NCBI GenBank assembly: GCA_043797085.1
Contig: JAZDQA010000014.1
Location: forward strand, 64,001 to 128,000
Source: Pseudomonadota bacterium
GTDB taxonomy: Bacteria > Campylobacterota > Campylobacteria > Campylobacterales > Sulfurimonadaceae
Reading direction: 5' to 3'
DNA: 64,000 bases
The notes beneath the pieces are model-generated. The model did no database searches and was not told where the DNA came from. It worked only from the letters and a program-made list of their open reading frames with translations. The translations under genes and the position numbers were made by a program. Below, in pieces: positions 13,421 through 29,186 of this stretch (the stretch's first letter is position 1; each line of letters opens with the position of its first letter).

Positions 13421-13744
13421 ATGGAAATCTTTTTAGAAACAGTATCCGCACTAAACGATGAAACTCGCGTAAAGTTGCTCGCATTTTTAGATCAACACGG
13501 TCCGCTGTGTGTATGCGATTTGCAATCTTCACTCGGTATGATTCAATCACGTCTTTCACGTCACCTAAAAATCCTCAAAGATGGGGGATTTTTACGGGTG
13601 GATCGGTGCGGTACGTGGGCGTATTATTCCATACGTTCCCCACTGGATCGTTTCCGTAGTGAAGCACTGGCTGAAATCCGTTGTTTGGGAATCGAACTTC
13701 CCCCACTTATAAAAATATCAGAAAATGGAGACTGTAAATTATGA
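13421..13744 (+). CDS. arsR: ArsR/SmtB metalloregulator
   Basis: LCVCD, QSRLSRHLKIL, WAYY. Confidence 0.95.
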   Translation: MEIFLETVSALNDETRVKLLAFLDQHGPLCVCDLQSSLGMIQSRLSRHLKILKDGGFLRVDRCGTWAYYSIRSPLDRFRSEALAEIRCLGIELPPLIKISENGDCKL

Positions 13745-14145
13745 AAAATGTTCTTATCCTCTGCACCGGCAACAGCTGCCGCTCTATCATGGGAGAAGCC
13801 CTCATCAATGCCAAAATGGGAGATTGTGTATTTGCACAAAGCTCAGGGGTAAAAGCCAGCGGTAAAGTAAACCCACATGCGCAAGCGCTTCTCGAAGAAA
13901 AGGGATACTGGAGAGAGGCATACCACTCTAAAGTGATCGATACCGTTATCGACACTCCGTTTGATCTCGTCGTCACCGTCTGTGACCATGCCCATGAAAC
14001 CTGCCCAATGTTTCCAAAAGCGGTAAAAACGATCCATGTCAGTTTCGAAGACCCAAGCGGTAAAGAAGTCGAAGAATATGCTAAAACTTTGGATTTAATC
14101 GAGGCAACTCTTCTTCCTATCATCCAATCCGAGTTGTGTGACTGA
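13741..14145 (+). CDS. arsC: Arsenate reductase, LMW-PTP/thioredoxin type (second copy)
   Basis: LCTGNSCRS, VTVCD...CPMFP, EDP. Confidence 0.92.
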   Translation: MKNVLILCTGNSCRSIMGEALINAKMGDCVFAQSSGVKASGKVNPHAQALLEEKGYWREAYHSKVIDTVIDTPFDLVVTVCDHAHETCPMFPKAVKTIHVSFEDPSGKEVEEYAKTLDLIEATLLPIIQSELCD

Positions 14146-14147
14146 TT

Positions 14148-15098
14148 ATGTGGCAAGAGAGCGTCAATTTCCTCGTGTATGAATGGCTTCAACTGCCGCG
14201 AGAGGAGAAGCTCTCTGACGCTCTCAACTTTTTTATCTACGATACGGTCAAAATCCTCTTTTTACTCATTGTTATTATTTTTATCGTAACCTTACTCCGG
14301 TCTTATTTCTCGACCGAAAAAGTACGGGAGTACCTCAGTAAAAGACATGAATATACGGGGAATGTCCTTGCGGCATTGTTCGGGATTATCACCCCGTTTT
14401 GTTCGTGTTCGGCGATTCCCCTCTTTTTGGGCTTTTTGCAAGCACGCATACCGCTTGGGGTGACGTTTAGCTTTCTCATCTCCGCTCCGCTGAACAACGA
14501 AATCGCCATCGCGATGCTCTTTGGGATATTTGGCTGGAAAGTGACGGCGTTGTATATCGGGTTTGGTCTTCTTGTCGCTATTGTCGGTGGTATCATTATC
14601 GGGAGGCTTGGATTAGAGAAAGAGGTTCTCATCGAGGTCAAACCGATTGAGGGAGAAATCCACGCTGAAAATCAGGTTATCCCTTTTAAAATACGTCTGA
14701 TCGATGCAAAAGAATACACGTTGGATATTCTTCGTAAAATCTGGCTCTATGTTTTGATCGGTGTCGGCGTAGGAGCGTTTATCCACGGATACGTCCCGAC
14801 CGAATTTATCACCTCTATCGCCGGGGCGGATAACCCGTTTGCCGTACCACTGGCAACATTGATAGGAATTCCGATGTATTCTAACGCCGCAGGAGTAATG
14901 CCGCTCATCGAAGTGCTCACCTCCAAAGGGATGCTTTTGGGGACGGCATTATCGTTTATGATGGCGATCACCGCCCTCTCCCTCCCCGAAGCGATGATCC
15001 TCAAGCGTGTGATGAGCCTCAAACTCATCGCCATCTTTTTCGGTACGGTGACGCTGGGGATAATCGGTGTCGGATATTTATTTAACACAATCTTATAG
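14148..15098 (+). CDS. arsP: ArsP-type (DUF318) permease
   Basis: TPFCSCSAIP, GIPMYSNAAG, SLPE. Confidence 0.88.
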   Translation: MWQESVNFLVYEWLQLPREEKLSDALNFFIYDTVKILFLLIVIIFIVTLLRSYFSTEKVREYLSKRHEYTGNVLAALFGIITPFCSCSAIPLFLGFLQARIPLGVTFSFLISAPLNNEIAIAMLFGIFGWKVTALYIGFGLLVAIVGGIIIGRLGLEKEVLIEVKPIEGEIHAENQVIPFKIRLIDAKEYTLDILRKIWLYVLIGVGVGAFIHGYVPTEFITSIAGADNPFAVPLATLIGIPMYSNAAGVMPLIEVLTSKGMLLGTALSFMMAITALSLPEAMILKRVMSLKLIAIFFGTVTLGIIGVGYLFNTIL

Positions 15099-15106
15099 GA
15101 GATACT

Positions 15107-15367
15107 ATGAAAATCGAAATTAGTAATCAAAAAAATGGTGTAAAAGCTTTTCTTTCAGGCTTTAGCACTGAAGAGTTAAGTGCTAAAATAGAGGCATGTA
15201 AAACTGGAGAATGTTCATGTAACTGTGATCCTGCAATGATGCTAAAGATCGAATCAATTGATCTCGAAAGTGTCGATGGAGGATCAACGATCACCATTAC
15301 CGGAGATGTGGATGCCCAAACACTCGCACCGATGATGCAAGAGTGTCTTTTAGGAGAAAAACAATGA
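15107..15367 (+). CDS. Small Cys-rich hypothetical protein in the ars operon
   Basis: 86 aa, RBS AGGAG, CxxxxCxCxC motif, overlaps the next start codon. Confidence 0.75.
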   Translation: MKIEISNQKNGVKAFLSGFSTEELSAKIEACKTGECSCNCDPAMMLKIESIDLESVDGGSTITITGDVDAQTLAPMMQECLLGEKQ

Positions 15368-15600
15368 AAATCGAAATTTTAGGGACGGGTTGTACTAAAT
15401 GCAAAGCCCTCGAAGAGGCAACCAAACAAGCGGTAGCGCAAAGCGGCAAATTTGCCCAGATCGAAAAGGTCGAAGATATTATGAAGATCATGGAATATGG
15501 TGTCATGAGTACTCCCGGACTCGTGATCGACGGTAAGGTTGTTAGTACCGGAAAACTTCTCAGTGTTACTGAGATCGTCAATCTGATCAAAGAGTCCTAA
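15364..15600 (+). CDS. Small thioredoxin-like redox-active disulfide protein (MTH895-like)
   Basis: MKIEILGTGCTKC...YGVMSTPGLVIDG; start at the ATG at 15364 after GGAG. Confidence 0.9.
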   Translation: MKIEILGTGCTKCKALEEATKQAVAQSGKFAQIEKVEDIMKIMEYGVMSTPGLVIDGKVVSTGKLLSVTEIVNLIKES

Positions 15601-20980: not shown

Positions 20981-21811
20981 ATGTCATTAAGTCAATTACA
21001 AAGAGAATTTAATAAACTCCATCGAATAAATACTCAAAGTGAGCCTATTGAAAAGCTAAAGCGGCAATACGCAGAACTTATGAAAGGCATGTACCTTTCA
21101 TGGACGGGAGGACATTTTGATAATATCTGGCGTGCACAAATTGGTAATCATGACAACATAAAGCGTATGTGGTATCCACCAGCGGACAAAGTTACTAAGC
21201 TTGGACGTTTAAATAGAAAATACGAATCATTATTCTATGCATGTACGGGTCATAATGCCAACTTGAGTTCAATTGAAGAAGTACGAGCACAAATTGGAGA
21301 TCATGTCACTCAAATATGTTGTGAATTGACACCACCTTATCAACAATATCGATTTCTTGGGTTGGGGCATGTTTTTCAATGGAAAAAGGAACAGCTTCCT
21401 GAACATATAAAAACATTAAATTATTTAAATAGGCTTGATCGACAACAACGTTTTAATAAAAAAAAAGACTTTCGTAAAAATGAATACATTGCTGATCGAT
21501 TAGACACATTATTTAAACAAGATGTAGCACATAATCAAGAGCATAAGTATTCACACTCAATAGCTATCACTGAAAATTGTTTTGAAAATTTTTCAGGTGT
21601 TCAAGGAATAATTTTCCCGAGTATCGCAAGCAGTCAGAATGCGCTAAATATAGTGATAAAACCTAATGTTGCAGATAAATTTTTAACTTTCAAGTTCGTA
21701 CGAGTAGTTGAGGTCTTATTTAAAAACAATAAATATATGAAACTACGACTACGTAGAGAAGCTACAAGTATTGATGAAGATGGAAATTTTGTTTGGAAAG
21801 AAAGTATATAA
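20981..21811 (+). CDS. RES domain protein
   Basis: IWRA (R), GRLN..LFY, IEEV (E), GIIFPS (S), NIVI; AT-rich. Confidence 0.7.
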   Translation: MSLSQLQREFNKLHRINTQSEPIEKLKRQYAELMKGMYLSWTGGHFDNIWRAQIGNHDNIKRMWYPPADKVTKLGRLNRKYESLFYACTGHNANLSSIEEVRAQIGDHVTQICCELTPPYQQYRFLGLGHVFQWKKEQLPEHIKTLNYLNRLDRQQRFNKKKDFRKNEYIADRLDTLFKQDVAHNQEHKYSHSIAITENCFENFSGVQGIIFPSIASSQNALNIVIKPNVADKFLTFKFVRVVEVLFKNNKYMKLRLRREATSIDEDGNFVWKESI

Positions 21812-21854
21812 CAAATCTGAGGAGACTAATCAAAAACCCGCAAGCGGCTTTTTA

Positions 21855-21924
21855 CTCGTTCCCAACGTCCTCGTTGGGAATGCAGACTAACATACACACT
21901 CCCAAGCTGGAGCTTGGGAGCGAG
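21855..21924. repeat. REP doublet (REPIN-like): two inverted palindromic units
   Basis: CTCGTTCCCAACG-tcct-CGTTGGGAATGC, then CACTCCCAAGCT-gg-AGCTTGGGAGCGAG in opposite orientation. Confidence 0.7.
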
Positions 21925-22009
21925 ACATTCCACGCCTCGACCCACTCATAAGCGAAACGCTCTGCAAACTCTATATCAATCATTTATTTCCCTTTCACCA
22001 CTCTAACTC

Positions 22010-23728
22010 TCAATCGGACTGTAACGATTGACTGTGAAAAACATACTTGTTTTTGCCAGTTTCCTTGGCTAAATACATAGCTTGATCCGCGTGTCGAAGT
22101 AATACTTCAGCAGTAGTGTCATCATCTTGCGGATACAGTGTTATTCCTATGCTTGCACCTACTTTAATATGCTCATTGTTAGGAAGGGTATACGATTTAT
22201 TGATGCTTTCTAAAAGTTTGATGATGATATTTTCACACTCTTTTTTAGTGTTAATATTTAAAAGTAAAATAGCAAATTCATCTCCCCCAATTCTTGCTAC
22301 AGTATCACTTTCTCTGACACACTTTTGCATCCGATGTCCGATTTCAATCAATAATGCATCACCCGTACTATGCCCGTAGTTATCGTTAACCGGTTTAAAT
22401 TCATCCAAATCGAGATAACACACCGCCATCATACTATTGAAACGTTTTGAAAGACTCATTGCCTGATGGGTTCTCTCTGATAATAACAAGCGATTTGGCA
22501 ATCCCGTTAAAGAGTCATAAAATGCCATCCGTTCTAAGTTAGATTCATAATCTTTCCCCATCGTTATATCGGTCAATAACCCAACATAACTAGAAATATT
22601 CTCATTCGAATCGCAAATGGCAGATATAGTCAATCGCTCTACAAAAATCTCCCCATTTTTTCGTCGATTCCAAATCTCACCGATCCAATATTTATTCCGA
22701 ATTAGCTCTTCCCACATATGTTTATAAAATGCTTTTCCATGTTTTTCAGATTTTAAAAAACCGGCATTTTGCCCTATAATCTCATCTTTTGAATAGCCAG
22801 TTATCAAAGCATAAGCTTCGTTCACATCGACGATAATTCCACTGGTATTTGTAATTACAATACCCTCTTTTGCACTGGTAAAGACACTGGCTAAAAGTTT
22901 TAATTTTTCTTCGGTTTTTTTCCGTTCCGTAACATCTGTACCAATACCAATAGAACCGATCATCCTTTGATCTACATCATAAATAGGAACTTTTCGTATT
23001 TCAAAAACATTTTGAGTACCATTGTGATCAGTAACAACCTCTTCACTTATATTAATTTTTCCACTAGCCATCACATCTTCATCCGTAATTTGACAAATTT
23101 CGGCATTGTGTTTATTCATTAAGTCATAATCCGTTTTACCAATAAGTTCTCCATGATTGACATTGAAGAATCGATCTAATGCCGGATTGGAAGCAATATA
23201 AACACCTTTAATATCTTTCATCCATACCAAATCGGGAATTGCATCAATCAATGTACTCAACTCAGATGCAGTTTTAGCGAGTAATATCTCAGTATTTCTA
23301 CGCTTTGATATATCCAGATTAAAGCAAGTTAAACCAATTGCCTTTTTTTCAGTTTCATCATAAATTGGTGAATAATAAGTCCACCAAAACTTTCTGGATA
23401 ATAATTCATCTCCATATTCCGTCTCATCGACAAATGAGTTACAAGCAAGGGCTTTATCAAAAAGTTGCTTGGCTTTTTGACAATCATCTTCTCTACCTAT
23501 GACTTCAAGCATATTCATCCCAAGCTCAATCTCTTTGCCCCAAAGAATTTCCATCATTTTTTTATGCTCTTGGTTAAAAGCCAAATAGTTATAGTTTGTA
23601 TCCAAGGCGAAAATAATAATATTAGGAGAACTTTCTAAAATAACTTGGAGTAAATTAGTATTCGTTTGATTGCCAATTGAGTGAATGTCCATGTTACTAT
23701 TGAGAAGAGTTAGCTTATCATTACCCAT
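22010..23728 (-). CDS. Cytoplasmic PAS-PAS-PAS-GGDEF diguanylate cyclase
   Basis: Three PAS domains, DSLTGLPNR, I-site RESD, RIGGDEF. Confidence 0.92.
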   Translation of the reverse strand: MGNDKLTLLNSNMDIHSIGNQTNTNLLQVILESSPNIIIFALDTNYNYLAFNQEHKKMMEILWGKEIELGMNMLEVIGREDDCQKAKQLFDKALACNSFVDETEYGDELLSRKFWWTYYSPIYDETEKKAIGLTCFNLDISKRRNTEILLAKTASELSTLIDAIPDLVWMKDIKGVYIASNPALDRFFNVNHGELIGKTDYDLMNKHNAEICQITDEDVMASGKINISEEVVTDHNGTQNVFEIRKVPIYDVDQRMIGSIGIGTDVTERKKTEEKLKLLASVFTSAKEGIVITNTSGIIVDVNEAYALITGYSKDEIIGQNAGFLKSEKHGKAFYKHMWEELIRNKYWIGEIWNRRKNGEIFVERLTISAICDSNENISSYVGLLTDITMGKDYESNLERMAFYDSLTGLPNRLLLSERTHQAMSLSKRFNSMMAVCYLDLDEFKPVNDNYGHSTGDALLIEIGHRMQKCVRESDTVARIGGDEFAILLLNINTKKECENIIIKLLESINKSYTLPNNEHIKVGASIGITLYPQDDDTTAEVLLRHADQAMYLAKETGKNKYVFHSQSLQSD

Positions 23729-23965
23729 TTTTCAACTCCTTGCACTTTTTATCATGATTGATGCAAATATCGGCTTATTAATATAAATAATATCTTAGCA
23801 AAAAATACTAAAATAATTATAATAGTCTAAAATTTATTATCGAACTTTGAAACTTTTTTTAAATTCATTGTTCCCTCTTTAGGTATAACTCATTGATAAG
23901 TTTCTAAATTTGCTCTTTTTTAATTAAAAGGCACTTCACGGGTACTTTTACACTATAATCAAAAT

Positions 23966-24685
23966 ATGAATAACAAATTACTTATAAAATTGTCTGATGA
24001 CTGTTACTGGAACCCTGATACACGTATTGTTATAGATCATGATAAAGTTATTGTTTTAACCGCCAACATGACGAGACTGCTTAGTTATCTTGTCAATAAT
24101 TTTGATAAATCTGTTCATAGCATTGATATTTTTTTAGATGTTTTTTATGAGTACGATAAAGAATTTAAAGCCAAAATAATCCGAAATATGATTAGTGATT
24201 TACGAAAAAAAGTCCCTTGTTTAGAAATAAGTAATTTTTACGGCGGGCGTTACATGCTCCGGAAATTTCATGATGATAGCAGTGAATTTCAAAAATACCT
24301 TTTGGATATTTTGGATCAAGCTAAAAATGGAATCACCATTACCAATCCCAATCTGCCTGATAATCCTCTCATTTATGTAAACCAAGCATTTAGCGATCTA
24401 TTTGGGTACACACGGGATGAAGTTATCCATAAAAATTGCCGTTTTTTACATAGAGACGATCGAGACCAGTTGGCATTGGATGAAATACGACGTGCAATAA
24501 CAGCTAAAACCAACGTCACCGTTACCTTGCGCAACTACGACAAAGAGGGGCAGCTTGTTTATAATGAAATCACTATCAGCCCTATATTTGATAAGGAAAC
24601 GGGGAAACTACTGTACTTTTTAGGTGTTCAAAAAGATGTCAGTCGTGTCAATCAACTGATGCAGCAAATCAAAGGAATTGTGTAA
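23966..24685 (+). CDS. Winged-helix (OmpR C-terminal-like) DNA-binding domain fused to a LOV-type PAS domain
   Basis: N-terminal 'LTANMTRLLSYL...IRNMISDLRKKV...GGRYML'; C-terminal 'DNPLIYVNQAF..GY..EVIHKNCRFLH...RNY..YNE...GVQKD'. Confidence 0.8.
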   Translation: MNNKLLIKLSDDCYWNPDTRIVIDHDKVIVLTANMTRLLSYLVNNFDKSVHSIDIFLDVFYEYDKEFKAKIIRNMISDLRKKVPCLEISNFYGGRYMLRKFHDDSSEFQKYLLDILDQAKNGITITNPNLPDNPLIYVNQAFSDLFGYTRDEVIHKNCRFLHRDDRDQLALDEIRRAITAKTNVTVTLRNYDKEGQLVYNEITISPIFDKETGKLLYFLGVQKDVSRVNQLMQQIKGIV

Positions 24686-24688
24686 TTT

Positions 24689-27600
24689 ATGCCAATAAAA
24701 AATGAATTTAATCTAAATTATGAAAAGTTGACCCTTGTGGGATTAGGTGCGAGCGCGGGAGGGTTCGAGGCTCTTTTAAAATTTATCCAAAATATCGAAC
24801 CATCCGACGCGATTACCTACATTATTACTCAGCACCTCGATCCCAAACAACCAACGATGCTAGGCTCGCTGCTGCAAAAATACTCCAAACTTCCTATTAT
24901 CCAAGTGACCAATAAAATGAAGCCAAAGGGCAATACCATTTATTTCTGCCCGCCAAGTTTTGATCTGGTCCTCGAAGAGGGTCACTTTCTCTTAATGACG
25001 CCTCCCCTCAAACCCTACCCAAAACCCTCCGTTAACCGTTTCTTTAAATCACTTGCACTCGAAAAAAAAGAAAAAGCGATTGGAATTATCTTAAGCGGTA
25101 CAGGAAGTGATGGGGCTGAGGGAATTGTGGCGATCAAGCAAAATGGGGGAATCGCCCTTGCTCAAAATGAAAATGCCAAATATTTTTCAATGCCCAAAGC
25201 CGCAATCGATACGGAAGCGGTAGACGCAGTACTTCCACCTGACCTTCTCGCGCAGGGGATTATTTATGCCATCGACGATCCTACCTATTTTGACCGTCAT
25301 TTTGATGTGTTGGATAACATCGATAAAGTTTTCAGCCTTCTCAACCAAAAAGGTGAAGTTGATTTTAGCGATTACAAAGAAGCCACCATCCATCGCCGAC
25401 TTGAGCGCAGAATCATCGAAACCAAATCTGAAAGCGTTGATGAGTACATTACCCTTTTACAACGCTCTCCAGCAGAGATACTAAATCTAAAAAAAGAACT
25501 TCTGATTATCGTCACCTCTTTGTTTCGTGACAAAGAAGCATTTGCTGCATTAGAAGAACACTTAGAAAAAATACTCGCCGATAAACTTGATAACCATGTA
25601 CGTATATGGGTTGCAGGCTGTGCGTTTGGTGATGAAGCCTATTCTATCGCCATTGTGATCACTGAACTTCTCAAAAAAATGGGAATGACTAAAAAAGTAA
25701 CTATTTTTGCAACAGATGTCAGTGAAGAAGCTATCGACGAAGCCCGAAGCAGAAACTTTAGTGAAGACGAAGTGAGTCACATCGATCCGCTGTTGATAAA
25801 CCTTTATTTTGTGGAAAAAAATCACCGATTTACTCCGACTAAAAGCATACGCGATATGATTGTTTTTTCGAAGCATGACGTTATCAAGGATCCTCCATTT
25901 TTGAATCTGGATTTTGTCAGCTGCCGTAATCTTCTGATCTATTTCAACCCTGATTTACAGCAACGGGTTCAAAGTATTTTTTATTATGCTTTGCGTTATC
26001 AGGGGCTGATGTTTTTAGGGTCTTCCGAGACAATCGGGACCTTGACCAATCTTTTCTCCATCGTCGATAACAAATACAAAATTTATCGAAAATCCAATGA
26101 TACGGGCGTTATAGATATCGAAGGATTAGCCTATTTTCAGAAAAAAGAGTTTAAACGCGGTACGAAAAAATTGCGCGATGAAGTCAACAGTCTGGATGTT
26201 AATGCATCCATAAACAGTGCTGTCACCTCCTTTTTTGCGATCAATGGGGTCGTTGTAGATGGCAACGGAACGATCTTGTTTTTCAAGGGAGAGAACAAAT
26301 ACATCTCTAATCCGCAAGGGCTTGTGACCAACGACATTTACAAACAAGTTTCCGATTTTTTACGTTTGGACATGAGAGCAACATTGGGTGAAGTAATCCG
26401 AAATGAGCAAGTCGTTGCCTCTAAAAAAATCAGGGTTTTACCACTGAGCGATGAACGAAAGTATGTTGTCATCACCGTATTTCCACTCGGACACAATAAG
26501 CTCTCAGAAAACAGTTTCTTCATTACCTTTGATGATATCAATGAAAAAGAGACCTCGTCTATTTCCTCTTATCAGCCCCAAACTGTCGATGGATACGACT
26601 TCAACATTCTCGAGAATGAACTCTCTGCTCTCAAAGAACGGCTTCAAATCACGATAGAAGAACTCGAAACCTCCAATGAAGAGCTACAAAGTACCAACGA
26701 AGAGCTCCAAAGCACCAACGAAGAGTTACAAAGCACCAATGAAGAGCTAGAGACTTCCAATGAAGAACTGCAAAGTACCAACGAGGAACTGCGTACCGTC
26801 AATGACGAGTTCGAACACAAAAATAATGAACTCGCCTTTGTCAACGAAGCCCTCAACAAAGTGGTAGAAGTCATCAATACCGATGTGTTGATTTTAGATA
26901 AGAATCTGGATCTTTTTCTTCATACCAAAGGTGTTGAGAAGTTTTTTGAAATTGCCAATGCCAATCGAATCAATCTAAGCGAGATTATTATTCATGAGCA
27001 TTTCCCCATCCCCAATCTTTTTGACGACATTAAAAACGTCGTTCAAAATACGAATGAAGTGCAATACGATTTGACCATCGATCATCGAATCTATTGGCTG
27101 CAAATAAAACGAATCAACCTCTCTGCTAATGATTACGGTGTCATTATCAGCTTTACCGACAAAACGGATATTATCCGCAATCAAGAGTTGATGTTTCAGC
27201 AGTCAAAACTCGCCAGTATGGGAGAAATGATCGGTAACATTGCCCATCAATGGCGACAACCGCTCAACACTTTGGCGCTCAATCTTTTTGGAATACAGAA
27301 AAAATTTGAAAATAAGACGATTGATGAGGCAATGTTTAATACCTTTGTGGAAGAGTCGCAAAACAACATACAGCACATGTCCTCAACTATTGATGATTTT
27401 AGAGATTTTTTCAATCCTAACAAATCAAAAAAACTTTTTTCCCTCTATGAAATTACCCAAAAAACCATTTCATTTGTCAAAGACACCTTTGACAATCATA
27501 ATATTGTCATACAAAATGATACCCATGAGGACGTACAAATCTATGGATTTGAAAATGAGTTTGCTCAAGTGTTGCTCAATATTTTGAATAACTCAAAAGA

Positions 27601-27892
27601 TGCCCTCATTAAAACCGGTAATCCAAATGGGTTAATACAAATTGGCATACAACGACAAGACAATATCGTTCGGATGATTATCACGGATAATGGAAGCGGT
27701 GTCCCCTCAGAGCTAATTGATCGCTTGTTTGAGCCTTATTTTACGACTAAAGATAAAAAAGAAGGAACCGGAATTGGATTGTATATGAGTAAAATGATTA
27801 TTGAAAACAGCATGAACGGATCTATCCAAATGGAATCACTGGATCATGGTATGCAAACCACTATTTCACTGCAAGCAGAACCTAATGCTTAA
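24689..27892 (+). CDS. CheB methylesterase-CheR methyltransferase-PAS-histidine kinase fusion
   Basis: CheB GASAGG/QH/GSDG; CheR WVAGC..EAYS and SCRNLLIY; EELQSTN heptads; H-box IAHQWRQP; N, G1 (DNGSG), F and G2 (GTGIGL) boxes. Confidence 0.92.
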   Translation: MPIKNEFNLNYEKLTLVGLGASAGGFEALLKFIQNIEPSDAITYIITQHLDPKQPTMLGSLLQKYSKLPIIQVTNKMKPKGNTIYFCPPSFDLVLEEGHFLLMTPPLKPYPKPSVNRFFKSLALEKKEKAIGIILSGTGSDGAEGIVAIKQNGGIALAQNENAKYFSMPKAAIDTEAVDAVLPPDLLAQGIIYAIDDPTYFDRHFDVLDNIDKVFSLLNQKGEVDFSDYKEATIHRRLERRIIETKSESVDEYITLLQRSPAEILNLKKELLIIVTSLFRDKEAFAALEEHLEKILADKLDNHVRIWVAGCAFGDEAYSIAIVITELLKKMGMTKKVTIFATDVSEEAIDEARSRNFSEDEVSHIDPLLINLYFVEKNHRFTPTKSIRDMIVFSKHDVIKDPPFLNLDFVSCRNLLIYFNPDLQQRVQSIFYYALRYQGLMFLGSSETIGTLTNLFSIVDNKYKIYRKSNDTGVIDIEGLAYFQKKEFKRGTKKLRDEVNSLDVNASINSAVTSFFAINGVVVDGNGTILFFKGENKYISNPQGLVTNDIYKQVSDFLRLDMRATLGEVIRNEQVVASKKIRVLPLSDERKYVVITVFPLGHNKLSENSFFITFDDINEKETSSISSYQPQTVDGYDFNILENELSALKERLQITIEELETSNEELQSTNEELQSTNEELQSTNEELETSNEELQSTNEELRTVNDEFEHKNNELAFVNEALNKVVEVINTDVLILDKNLDLFLHTKGVEKFFEIANANRINLSEIIIHEHFPIPNLFDDIKNVVQNTNEVQYDLTIDHRIYWLQIKRINLSANDYGVIISFTDKTDIIRNQELMFQQSKLASMGEMIGNIAHQWRQPLNTLALNLFGIQKKFENKTIDEAMFNTFVEESQNNIQHMSSTIDDFRDFFNPNKSKKLFSLYEITQKTISFVKDTFDNHNIVIQNDTHEDVQIYGFENEFAQVLLNILNNSKDALIKTGNPNGLIQIGIQRQDNIVRMIITDNGSGVPSELIDRLFEPYFTTKDKKEGTGIGLYMSKMIIENSMNGSIQMESLDHGMQTTISLQAEPNA
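26657..26803 (+). repeat. Seven 21-bp coding heptad repeats (EEL[Q/E/R][S/T]xN)
   Basis: EELETSN-EELQSTN x3-EELETSN-EELQSTN-EELRTVN, with synonymous variation between units. Confidence 0.85.
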
Positions 27893-29186
27893 GGACTATT
27901 CTCTTTTATACGTTGAAGACAACTCCGAAACGGCACGTGCATTTATCGGTGCATTTGCCGAGTATTTTAAAGCCGTATATGCGGCTAAAGATGGGGAAGA
28001 AGGATTGGCTCTTTTTGAAAAGAATTCTCCTGATATTGTTTTAACTGATATTCAGATGCCTAAAATAGGAGGGTTGGAGATGATTGCACGGATGCGTGAA
28101 TCCTCACCCAATATTCCCATTATCGTTAACTCCGCTTTCAGTGATACCCATTTGCTGCTTAAAGCGATCGCATTGCACGTCGATGACTACATTTTAAAAC
28201 CAACTAATCCGGTGCTTCTTTTGGGTACATTAAAAAAAATAGCCCGCGTTTTAACCCTTGAAAAAAAATTGGATGATTCGCATAAGATGATGCAAACTAT
28301 TATTGACGAAATCCCCGATCCCATCCTCTATATCTTGCCTGATTACACCGTAAGCATGATGAACAAAGCGGCAAAAGAGCTCAAGGGTGAGGGTACGGAC
28401 AAGATATTGCCACAATGTTATACTATTTCGAATCAGACGAACGGCGCGTGTACAAACGACCATAAAAACTGTCCTATAGATCATGTTTCCAACACAAAAC
28501 AGCCTTCTACCATTCGCCATATGCATACCGATAAACAGGGTAAAAAACATCATATAGACATTCATGCAAAACCAATTTTTGACAACGATGGAAATATTAT
28601 CGCCTATCTCGAAATTCGGCATGATATTAGCGCCTATTTGAACATTCAAAATCAATTGCTGAATGAAACAAAAAAATTAACCCATATCTCTATGCATGAT
28701 TCACTCACTCATCTGCCCAATCGTCGTCTTCTCGCGGATCGAATCAGTCATACAATCGAAAAGAAAAGTCGTTCAAATGAAATATTTGCACTCTTTTTTA
28801 TTGACTTGGATCATTTCAAAGAGATCAACGATTCACTGGGTCATTTGGTTGGGGATCAGCTTTTGGTGCAAGTAGCGAAACGAATACAAAAATCAATCCG
28901 AAAAGGGGACACCATCGCACGCAATGGAGGCGATGAATTTGTACTCATTGTCGATAACGAAGATTCTGGTCAGCATTTTATATCAGTTGCCGAAAAAATA
29001 TTAGAACTTTTTAAATCACCCTTCCCCATCAATCATGAAGAAGTTTTCAGTTCATGCAGTATCGGGATCAGTATTTATCCTAAAGACGGGAAAACCGTAG
29101 AGGAGTTACTCAAAAACTCCGATGCTGCTATGTACGACTCAAAACAAGCCGGACGGCATCAATTTTCTTTTTACTCTTCCAACTAA
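27885..29186 (+). CDS. Response regulator diguanylate cyclase (REC-PAS-GGDEF)
   Basis: REC YVED/LTDIQMP/LKP, Cys-containing PAS, I-site RKGD, RNGGDEF. Start at 27885 overlaps the kinase stop. Confidence 0.9.
   Translation: MLKDYSLLYVEDNSETARAFIGAFAEYFKAVYAAKDGEEGLALFEKNSPDIVLTDIQMPKIGGLEMIARMRESSPNIPIIVNSAFSDTHLLLKAIALHVDDYILKPTNPVLLLGTLKKIARVLTLEKKLDDSHKMMQTIIDEIPDPILYILPDYTVSMMNKAAKELKGEGTDKILPQCYTISNQTNGACTNDHKNCPIDHVSNTKQPSTIRHMHTDKQGKKHHIDIHAKPIFDNDGNIIAYLEIRHDISAYLNIQNQLLNETKKLTHISMHDSLTHLPNRRLLADRISHTIEKKSRSNEIFALFFIDLDHFKEINDSLGHLVGDQLLVQVAKRIQKSIRKGDTIARNGGDEFVLIVDNEDSGQHFISVAEKILELFKSPFPINHEEVFSSCSIGISIYPKDGKTVEELLKNSDAAMYDSKQAGRHQFSFYSSN

Follow-up and report, generated by a model that had tools for sequence, protein, structure and literature searches.

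What does a DNA-binding protein that carries a sensor domain of its own, and no receiver domain, respond to, and which genes does it control? The question is raised by a 239-amino-acid gene at 23966–24685 (+) of the window, as we call the whole 64,000-nucleotide stretch of Sulfurimonadaceae DNA analysed here. Its product joins an OmpR/PhoB-type winged helix to a C-terminal LOV domain (winged helix-turn-helix-LOV, wHTH-LOV) and opens a predicted operon with a hybrid histidine kinase and a diguanylate cyclase. Sequence and computation directly give the architecture, the active-site residues, a direct repeat phased to a −10 box and the content of the operon. We propose that the regulator forms a dimer under the control of blue light, binds the repeat that precedes its operon and controls that operon, a reading that we consider likely by a modest degree. 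The protein is a real and conserved one-component regulator, catalogued previously by domain label and apparently without experimental study; its predicted operator, its operon and the residue pattern of its family are described here for the first time.

A winged helix joined to a LOV domain

The LOV-type PAS fold of the C-terminal part is backed by profile matches, an AlphaFold2 model, Protein Data Bank (PDB) matches and Foldseek. PAS_9 matches amino acids 121–226 (E = 2.6e-21), the top PDB sequence matches are LOV proteins (E = 5.7e-28), and Foldseek aligns the model with PpSB1-LOV at a TMt of 0.90, in a match list made up of LOV proteins throughout. The YtvA family profile (NF052652) aligns to the LOV half only (amino acids 113–235, E = 1.4e-41), and its 142.7 bits, below the whole-protein cut-off of 250, leave the regulator outside that family. 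All four motifs from which an earlier note on this DNA had recognized the domain (HKNCRFLH, RNY, YNE and GVQ) are present, and its assignment is upheld. The LOV core covers amino acids 121–225 (24326–24640 (+)), with the codon of Cys158 at 24437–24439 and that of Gln222 at 24629–24631; in the AlphaFold2 model it is followed by a short C-terminal Jα helix without an attached effector (amino acids 226–238, 24641–24679 (+)).

The winged helix occupies approximately amino acids 5–100 (23978–24265 (+)), with the recognition helix at 69–82 and the wing at 88–98. Of the two profiles that the earlier note had named as a check, PAS_9 is clear, and Trans_reg_C falls short in the window copy (E = 7.1e-5; 23.2 bits under the curated cut-off of 26.2). 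Across the family, Trans_reg_C is found at E ≤ 0.01 in 64 of 65 aligned members (best 3.4e-11), and a family profile of the first 100 amino acids retrieves OmpR/PhoB DNA-binding domains from the PDB (CssR, E = 2.1e-8; 1kgs, 1.4e-5; ToxR, 1.9e-4). The AlphaFold2 model (predicted local distance difference test score (pLDDT) 89.6; predicted template modelling score (pTM) 0.56) runs through four strands, three helices and a β hairpin before A′α, LOV and Jα, which matches the element order of a winged helix (four-strand sheet, three helices, C-terminal β hairpin). Residues that face the DNA hardly vary across the family: R80, G93 and Y96 are invariant in all 97 members and R73 is kept in 96. Profile scans returned no Response_reg match in the regulator or in the aligned family members, and the predicted start stands 6 nucleotides after the −10 box. 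An OmpR/PhoB winged helix without a receiver, as first suggested from the letters, is thus borne out.

The two domains are linked by the A′α helix (amino acids 106–117, 24281–24316 (+)), which, together with the LOV β sheet, forms the interface of a predicted homodimer. The dimer model scores 0.66 (best control, 0.00), with pLDDT of at least 83 and runs that agree in at least 63% of contacts; 20 of 30 solved pairs attain the mark that it passes, as does 1 of 23 single chains. Resemblance to solved short-LOV dimers may account for this outcome.

Active-site residues and the nature of the signal

The window copy keeps the flavin contacts and the adduct cysteine (N157, C158, R159, R175, N190, N200 and Q222). 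Its motif, HKNCRFLH compared with the consensus GxNCRFLQ, retains NCRFL and has histidine at the first and last positions. The concern that these two substitutions might abolish the photocycle looks minor, because PpSB1-LOV, for which light-state structures exist, has tyrosine at the glycine position in our alignment, 46 of 97 members, like 8 of 54 short LOV proteins, have histidine at position 162, and Gln222 is intact.

The family as a whole is less uniform. Among 97 distinct sequences, the cysteine is kept in 80, the glutamine in 67 and both in 54; in short LOV controls from the same search, at least two of which look like truncated family members (P0064 and P0070), both are kept in 54 of 54. 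The five residues C, R, N, N and Q occur together in 50 members, the window copy among them. Cysteine is replaced by L, P, S, G, Y or I in 17 sequences spread over several separate branches of a quick version of the family tree, and despite this replacement N157 is retained in 97 of 97 and R159 in 96 of 97. At the glutamine position, one clade of 24 members carries Tyr, His or Asn.

Several of these results weigh against blue light as the general input. Purifying selection persists in pairs of sequences that lack the cysteine or the glutamine (the ratio of non-synonymous to synonymous substitution rates (dN/dS) is 0.07 in a Pro/Pro pair), yet the two residues remain together in only 54 of 97 members; canonical photochemistry is therefore not under selection everywhere. 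Furthermore, we did not find a photolyase, phytochrome, BLUF protein, heme oxygenase or DUF1722 gene in the window genome, which is 95.9% complete, and 54 of 65 other genomes of its genus have a photolyase. The lack of a photolyase match makes redox sensing a serious rival: the same regulator on the same operator would report flavin redox state, and through it oxygen or electron-transport status in a microaerophilic sulfur oxidizer, with any light response incidental or secondary. Two papers offer precedents. Cys-less LOV proteins can signal via flavin reduction, the Cys-less BAT-LOV* with proline responds to chemical reduction, and LOV photoreceptors have been proposed to descend from redox sensors (Yee et al. 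2015, PMC4682037); EL222-C78A attains a reduced lit state that was examined on DNA (PMC11928941). Four loci in which the regulator faces a PAS gene and a chemoreceptor pair would also suit a redox input.

We nevertheless judge redox sensing unlikely as the main input, as the window copy keeps every canonical residue and the family is linked to light-related genes. Of 251 genomes of the family to which the window belongs, 42 carry a full-length homologue, the window genome counted (two have a stop within the match), and we compared 43 loci, from 41 of these 42 genomes plus L002 and L003. A bacteriophytochrome gene lies in seven of the 43, with a heme oxygenase alongside in six (L125, L126, L136, L137, L149 and L003), where the heme oxygenase and an 843–846-amino-acid protein of a single cluster (PAS-GAF-PHY-HD in the one member scanned) are downstream of the regulator on the same strand; in L125, another PAS-GAF-PHY gene lies immediately upstream. 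The G294 locus has a PAS-GAF-PHY-PAS-GGDEF phytochrome upstream of the regulator (L239:2501–5032) and a chemoreceptor downstream, and in G143 a BLUF gene is in the regulator context. Losses of active-site residues cluster in the copies linked to a phytochrome: cysteine and glutamine are both kept in one of seven, two of which are sisters, compared with 23 of 36 other loci. Such loss is expected if the role of the LOV domain is light sensing. Photolyase genes occur in 35 of 42 regulator genomes and 88 of 209 others (related genomes, not independent) and, within genus g2, in 16 of 21 and 22 of 71, respectively; by coordinate arithmetic, the photolyase is within 40 kb of the regulator in 8 of 35, all in one genus.

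A conserved direct repeat at the regulator promoter

The predicted operator is the direct repeat GGCACTT-cacg-GGTACTT at 23930–23947 (+), with an 11-bp period, conserved upstream of the regulator. A −10 box (TATAAT, 23954–23959 (+)) begins 6 nucleotides past the repeat and ends 6 nucleotides before the ATG at 23966. The pho box is likewise an 11-bp direct repeat near −35. Upstream sequences give the consensus G[AG][CT]ACTT-N4-G[AG][CT]ACTT (GRYACTT-N4-GRYACTT), at least 12 of the 14 letters of which are present within 60 nucleotides upstream of the regulator in 29 of 43 loci. Information content reaches 2.6 bits per column inside the site and is at most 0.4 across most of the 40 nucleotides upstream. 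Among the 27 loci with a match to a repeat-plus-box pattern, the repeat-to-box spacing is 6 nucleotides in 26 and the box lies 5–8 nucleotides from the ATG in all 27, from which a leaderless transcript is predicted; neither a Shine–Dalgarno sequence nor a −35 consensus is visible before the regulator ATG.

The repeat follows the module when gene order changes. In seven of the remaining 14 loci the regulator closes its operon, and a repeat that scores at least 15 with our position weight matrix (PWM), which was trained on regulator-upstream sites, stands before the first gene. Of the other seven, three carry a weaker site in this position (12.7, 10.4 and 8.7), two are cut by the locus edge and two have none. 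G204 also has the repeat before the first gene where the regulator is last, and G294, from another family, carries the repeat with a −10 box twice, once before the regulator and once before the chemoreceptor. As a control, we scored 801-nucleotide stretches at the 5′ ends of CheB-CheR paralogues; one of 35 reaches 15, and this sole stretch carries an internally deleted wHTH-LOV remnant. In that remnant (L263; G248:C11:27875–28111, −), the winged-helix part runs out of frame into the last LOV strands, and the operator and the downstream CheB-CheR gene are still there. Across the 251 genomes, the repeat-plus-box pattern has 69 matches, 25 of them directly before a regulator; matches number 39 compared with 7 for reversed-pattern controls in the 42 regulator genomes, and 30 compared with 23 in a tally of the other 209.

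A tandem direct repeat tied to the regulator gene is thus observed, and its binding by the regulator is predicted. Other observations count against that prediction. L150 and L003 have no site at the expected place. Sites also occur in genomes in which no regulator was found: before the orthologous kinase in G150 (98% complete; score 16.5), before a CheY-like gene in G250 (20.7) and, as a repeat with TATAAT and an ATG 5 nucleotides on, before a 351-amino-acid radical-SAM gene, HemN-like by our reading of its sequence, in G021, G074 and G098 (L160–L162). In five regulator-less genomes picked for having sites, the bare-repeat pattern has 15 matches compared with 3 for controls. In addition, the top PWM score of the window is circular, as the matrix was trained on the same upstream sites.

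These sites in regulator-less genomes, together with GATACT-type repeats before other promoters and about a dozen other winged-helix open reading frames (ORFs) in the window genome, would fit a repeat that belongs to another chromosomal response regulator of the OmpR family, with the wHTH-LOV protein binding elsewhere or merely sharing the site. We think this improbable, because the site tracks the module across gene-order changes, CheB-CheR paralogues lack it except beside the gene remnant, it appears again in another family, at two places of a single locus, and none of the other winged helices exceeds 42 bits, compared with 154 for the regulator.

The reach of the predicted operator appears to be narrow. 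A large regulon is not supported, as PWM matches in the window genome are in line with the column-permuted expectation (34 compared with 33.8 at scores of at least 13; 2 compared with 0.75 at scores of at least 19). In five genomes the exact pattern has 13 matches; once those of the operon and of the G231 GGDEF promoter are set aside, the remaining 8 all sit inside ORFs; extra promoter-like sites were seen solely in G231 (GGDEF and chemoreceptor genes) and G294 (chemoreceptor). A role as master regulator of photolyase or light-stress genes is likewise not supported, as no site scoring at least 12 precedes the photolyase operons in four loci checked, a result that does not favour a light response. 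Separately, adhesin-like, transporter and HD-domain genes (L173, L174, L177 and L188–L191) are preceded by a −10 box and a repeat variant of the GATACT type, which is possibly the site of a sibling regulator.

A predicted operon of chemotaxis-like and cyclic di-GMP genes

The second gene of the predicted operon (24689–27892 (+)) begins 3 nucleotides past the regulator stop and encodes a 1,067-amino-acid CheB-CheR-coiled coil-histidine kinase hybrid (HisKA-HATPase). The third (27885–29186 (+)) overlaps the kinase stop by 8 nucleotides and encodes a REC-PAS-GGDEF diguanylate cyclase with an intact GGDEF motif. The tight spacing agrees with the earlier placement of the regulator as first gene of an operon. 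In 16 of 43 loci the kinase gene comes directly after the regulator, and in 4 it comes before; a GGDEF-cluster gene adjoins the regulator in 30, and one or other of the two in 33. Full-length kinase orthologues with at least 66% identity come from regulator genomes in 18 of 19 cases, the exception being G150.

Divergent from the regulator lies a PAS-PAS-PAS-GGDEF gene (22010–23728 (−)), which exists as previously described. The tie to the regulator that its position had suggested is dismissed: the gene is a singleton, with a counterpart in none of the other 42 loci, and is probably a neighbour outside the module. Elsewhere among the loci, L249:640–2142 encodes a 500-amino-acid REC-winged helix-PAS-GGDEF fusion, in which a DNA-binding domain is found within a diguanylate cyclase, and L250 has a similar 515-amino-acid ORF.

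Proposed mechanism

We suggest that the regulator would bind flavin mononucleotide (FMN) and that blue light would drive formation of a Cys158–C4a adduct. Gln222 could then pass the signal to the β sheet, which in the predicted dimer is packed on the A′α helix of the partner, and movement of A′α would reposition the two N-terminal winged helices for tandem binding. The dimer would sit on GRYACTT-N4-GRYACTT in place of a −35 element. The expected output is altered expression of the CheB-CheR kinase and the cyclic di-GMP enzyme, and in relatives also of chemoreceptors and phytochrome, which might shift the balance between motility and attachment. Between activation and repression the choice is close to even; by analogy with PhoB, we lean slightly towards activation, with positive feedback, because the repeat stands at a fixed distance from the −10 box and a −35 consensus is lacking.

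Another reading is that the LOV domain serves mainly for dimerization or protein contacts, leaving the regulator constitutive or controlled by a partner (the downstream kinase or a phytochrome). The A′α and β-sheet interface would suit it, as would the clade with Tyr, His or Asn at the glutamine position: three LOV proteins lost signalling when this glutamine was changed to histidine, and natural LOV domains largely lack aromatic residues at the position (Dietler et al. 2022, PMC9098866). This applies to the degenerate clade, however; 50 members, the window copy among them, keep all five residues, and we regard the reading as very improbable.

Beyond the blue-light reading of the window copy, a wider picture is conceivable, and we offer it tentatively as one that may well prove wrong. 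The wHTH-LOV protein would be a phosphorylation-free OmpR-class factor switched by its own flavin, acting on an 18-bp repeat over a leaderless promoter and heading a mobile cyclic di-GMP and chemotaxis cassette in sulfur-oxidizing Campylobacterota. The family would have moved between light sensing (cysteine and glutamine intact) and redox or partner sensing (either residue replaced under purifying selection), mostly where a phytochrome joined the operon.

Relation to known LOV regulators

The family is not new as a domain architecture. The survey of Losi et al. 2014 (PMC4844311) counts eight bacterial LOV proteins with a helix-turn-helix (HTH), in either domain order, and its supplement S1 labels Q30NS0 (Thiomicrospira denitrificans, 240 amino acids) as HTH+LOV and E4U0H9 (Sulfuricurvum kujiense, 239 amino acids) as RR+LOV. 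The effector-first architecture that had seemed unusual therefore stands, whereas the novelty of the order does not. E4U0H9 is our P0025 and belongs to the same family, being 54% identical to the regulator over its full length; its RR label is misleading, as no receiver is detected in the family. Q30NS0 is a probable member, judged from its length and label; the homologues retrieved with P0058 include no protein named from its species. The catalogue entries give just a domain label, and the operator, operon and residue analyses are added here. Literature searches, with subscription papers and bioRxiv supplements outside their reach, returned no experimental study of the wHTH-LOV family or of any LOV factor with an OmpR winged helix. 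The census of LOV architectures by Glantz et al. (2016, PNAS) may include this one.

The regulator resembles the one-component LOV factor EL222 of Erythrobacter litoralis in size and in its LOV domain (E = 1.7e-22). In EL222, however, LOV comes first and a LuxR HTH last, whereas the regulator begins with an OmpR winged helix and has a predicted tandem direct-repeat operator. Aureochromes, with their bZIP-LOV order, share the N-terminal effector, but theirs is not a winged helix. The RNA-binding NmPAL (PDB 6hmj), which has a C-terminal LOV domain (PMC9098866), is also effector-first and also lacks a winged helix. Because the effector is N-terminal in all three, the signal must exit via A′α. The closest solved LOV domains are those of the PpSB1-LOV, YtvA and LadC types (38–44% identity; TMt up to 0.90), with which the regulator shares a predicted A′α–β-sheet dimer; unlike it, they have no effector, or a C-terminal one reached through Jα. 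Response regulators of the OmpR/PhoB type and one-component regulators that begin with a winged helix, such as ToxR, provide the matching domains, but the regulator is soluble and lacks a receiver and phospho-acceptor aspartate, and its LOV domain would stand in for phosphorylation or membrane input.

Few bacterial LOV transcription factors are known, as the eight HTH-bearing proteins of the 2014 survey illustrate, and the predicted operator makes this system, a 239-amino-acid soluble protein and an 18-bp site, readily testable. If our blue-light reading is correct, the pair would be a new light-switchable transcription factor and operator and an orthogonal single-gene optogenetic switch alongside EL222. 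The system would further tell whether sulfur oxidizers that are not phototrophic adjust cyclic di-GMP and chemotaxis genes by light or by the redox state of flavin. Members that naturally lack the cysteine or the glutamine are relevant to the proposed origin of LOV photoreceptors from redox sensors (PMC4682037) and could form a natural light-versus-redox series.

Distribution and selection

Named homologues come mainly from Sulfuricurvum and Sulfurimonas. Among 300 class-level genomes, full-length matches were found in 3 of 23 Sulfurimonadaceae and, outside this family, in G294 alone; the two largest other families in that set have none (0 of 90 and 0 of 124). Matches to the winged-helix profile of at least 176 amino acids are wHTH-PAS proteins of 187–258 amino acids in 61 of 62 cases, which suggests a subfamily nearly always fused to PAS or LOV; no longer fusions are among these 62 matches, a blank that is weak evidence. 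Stand-alone short LOV proteins (P0069–P0082, 139–162 amino acids) are 55–69% identical to the LOV half and are likely to represent the donor of that half to the fusion. For both domains, dN/dS is 0.02–0.24 in 15 of 16 pairs (one pair is saturated), a range that indicates purifying selection on each.

Other features of the window

No tRNA gene was found in the 64-kb window. In a groundwater metatranscriptome (X1), short contigs are 99–100% identical over the regulator (24492–24664), the kinase, the cyclase and the divergent gene; we do not count them as evidence of transcription or habitat, because DNA carry-over is possible. Many loose contig ends of X1 fall at 21855–21925, a hint of a repeated element. 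The interval 21000–23999 has lower GC content (0.30–0.36) and holds the divergent GGDEF gene and a 276-amino-acid ORF (20981–21811 (+)) with a weak RES domain match (E = 0.069). Further upstream, at 13741–15600 (+), successive ORFs are arsenate-reductase-like, permease and thioredoxin-like, as judged from their translations.
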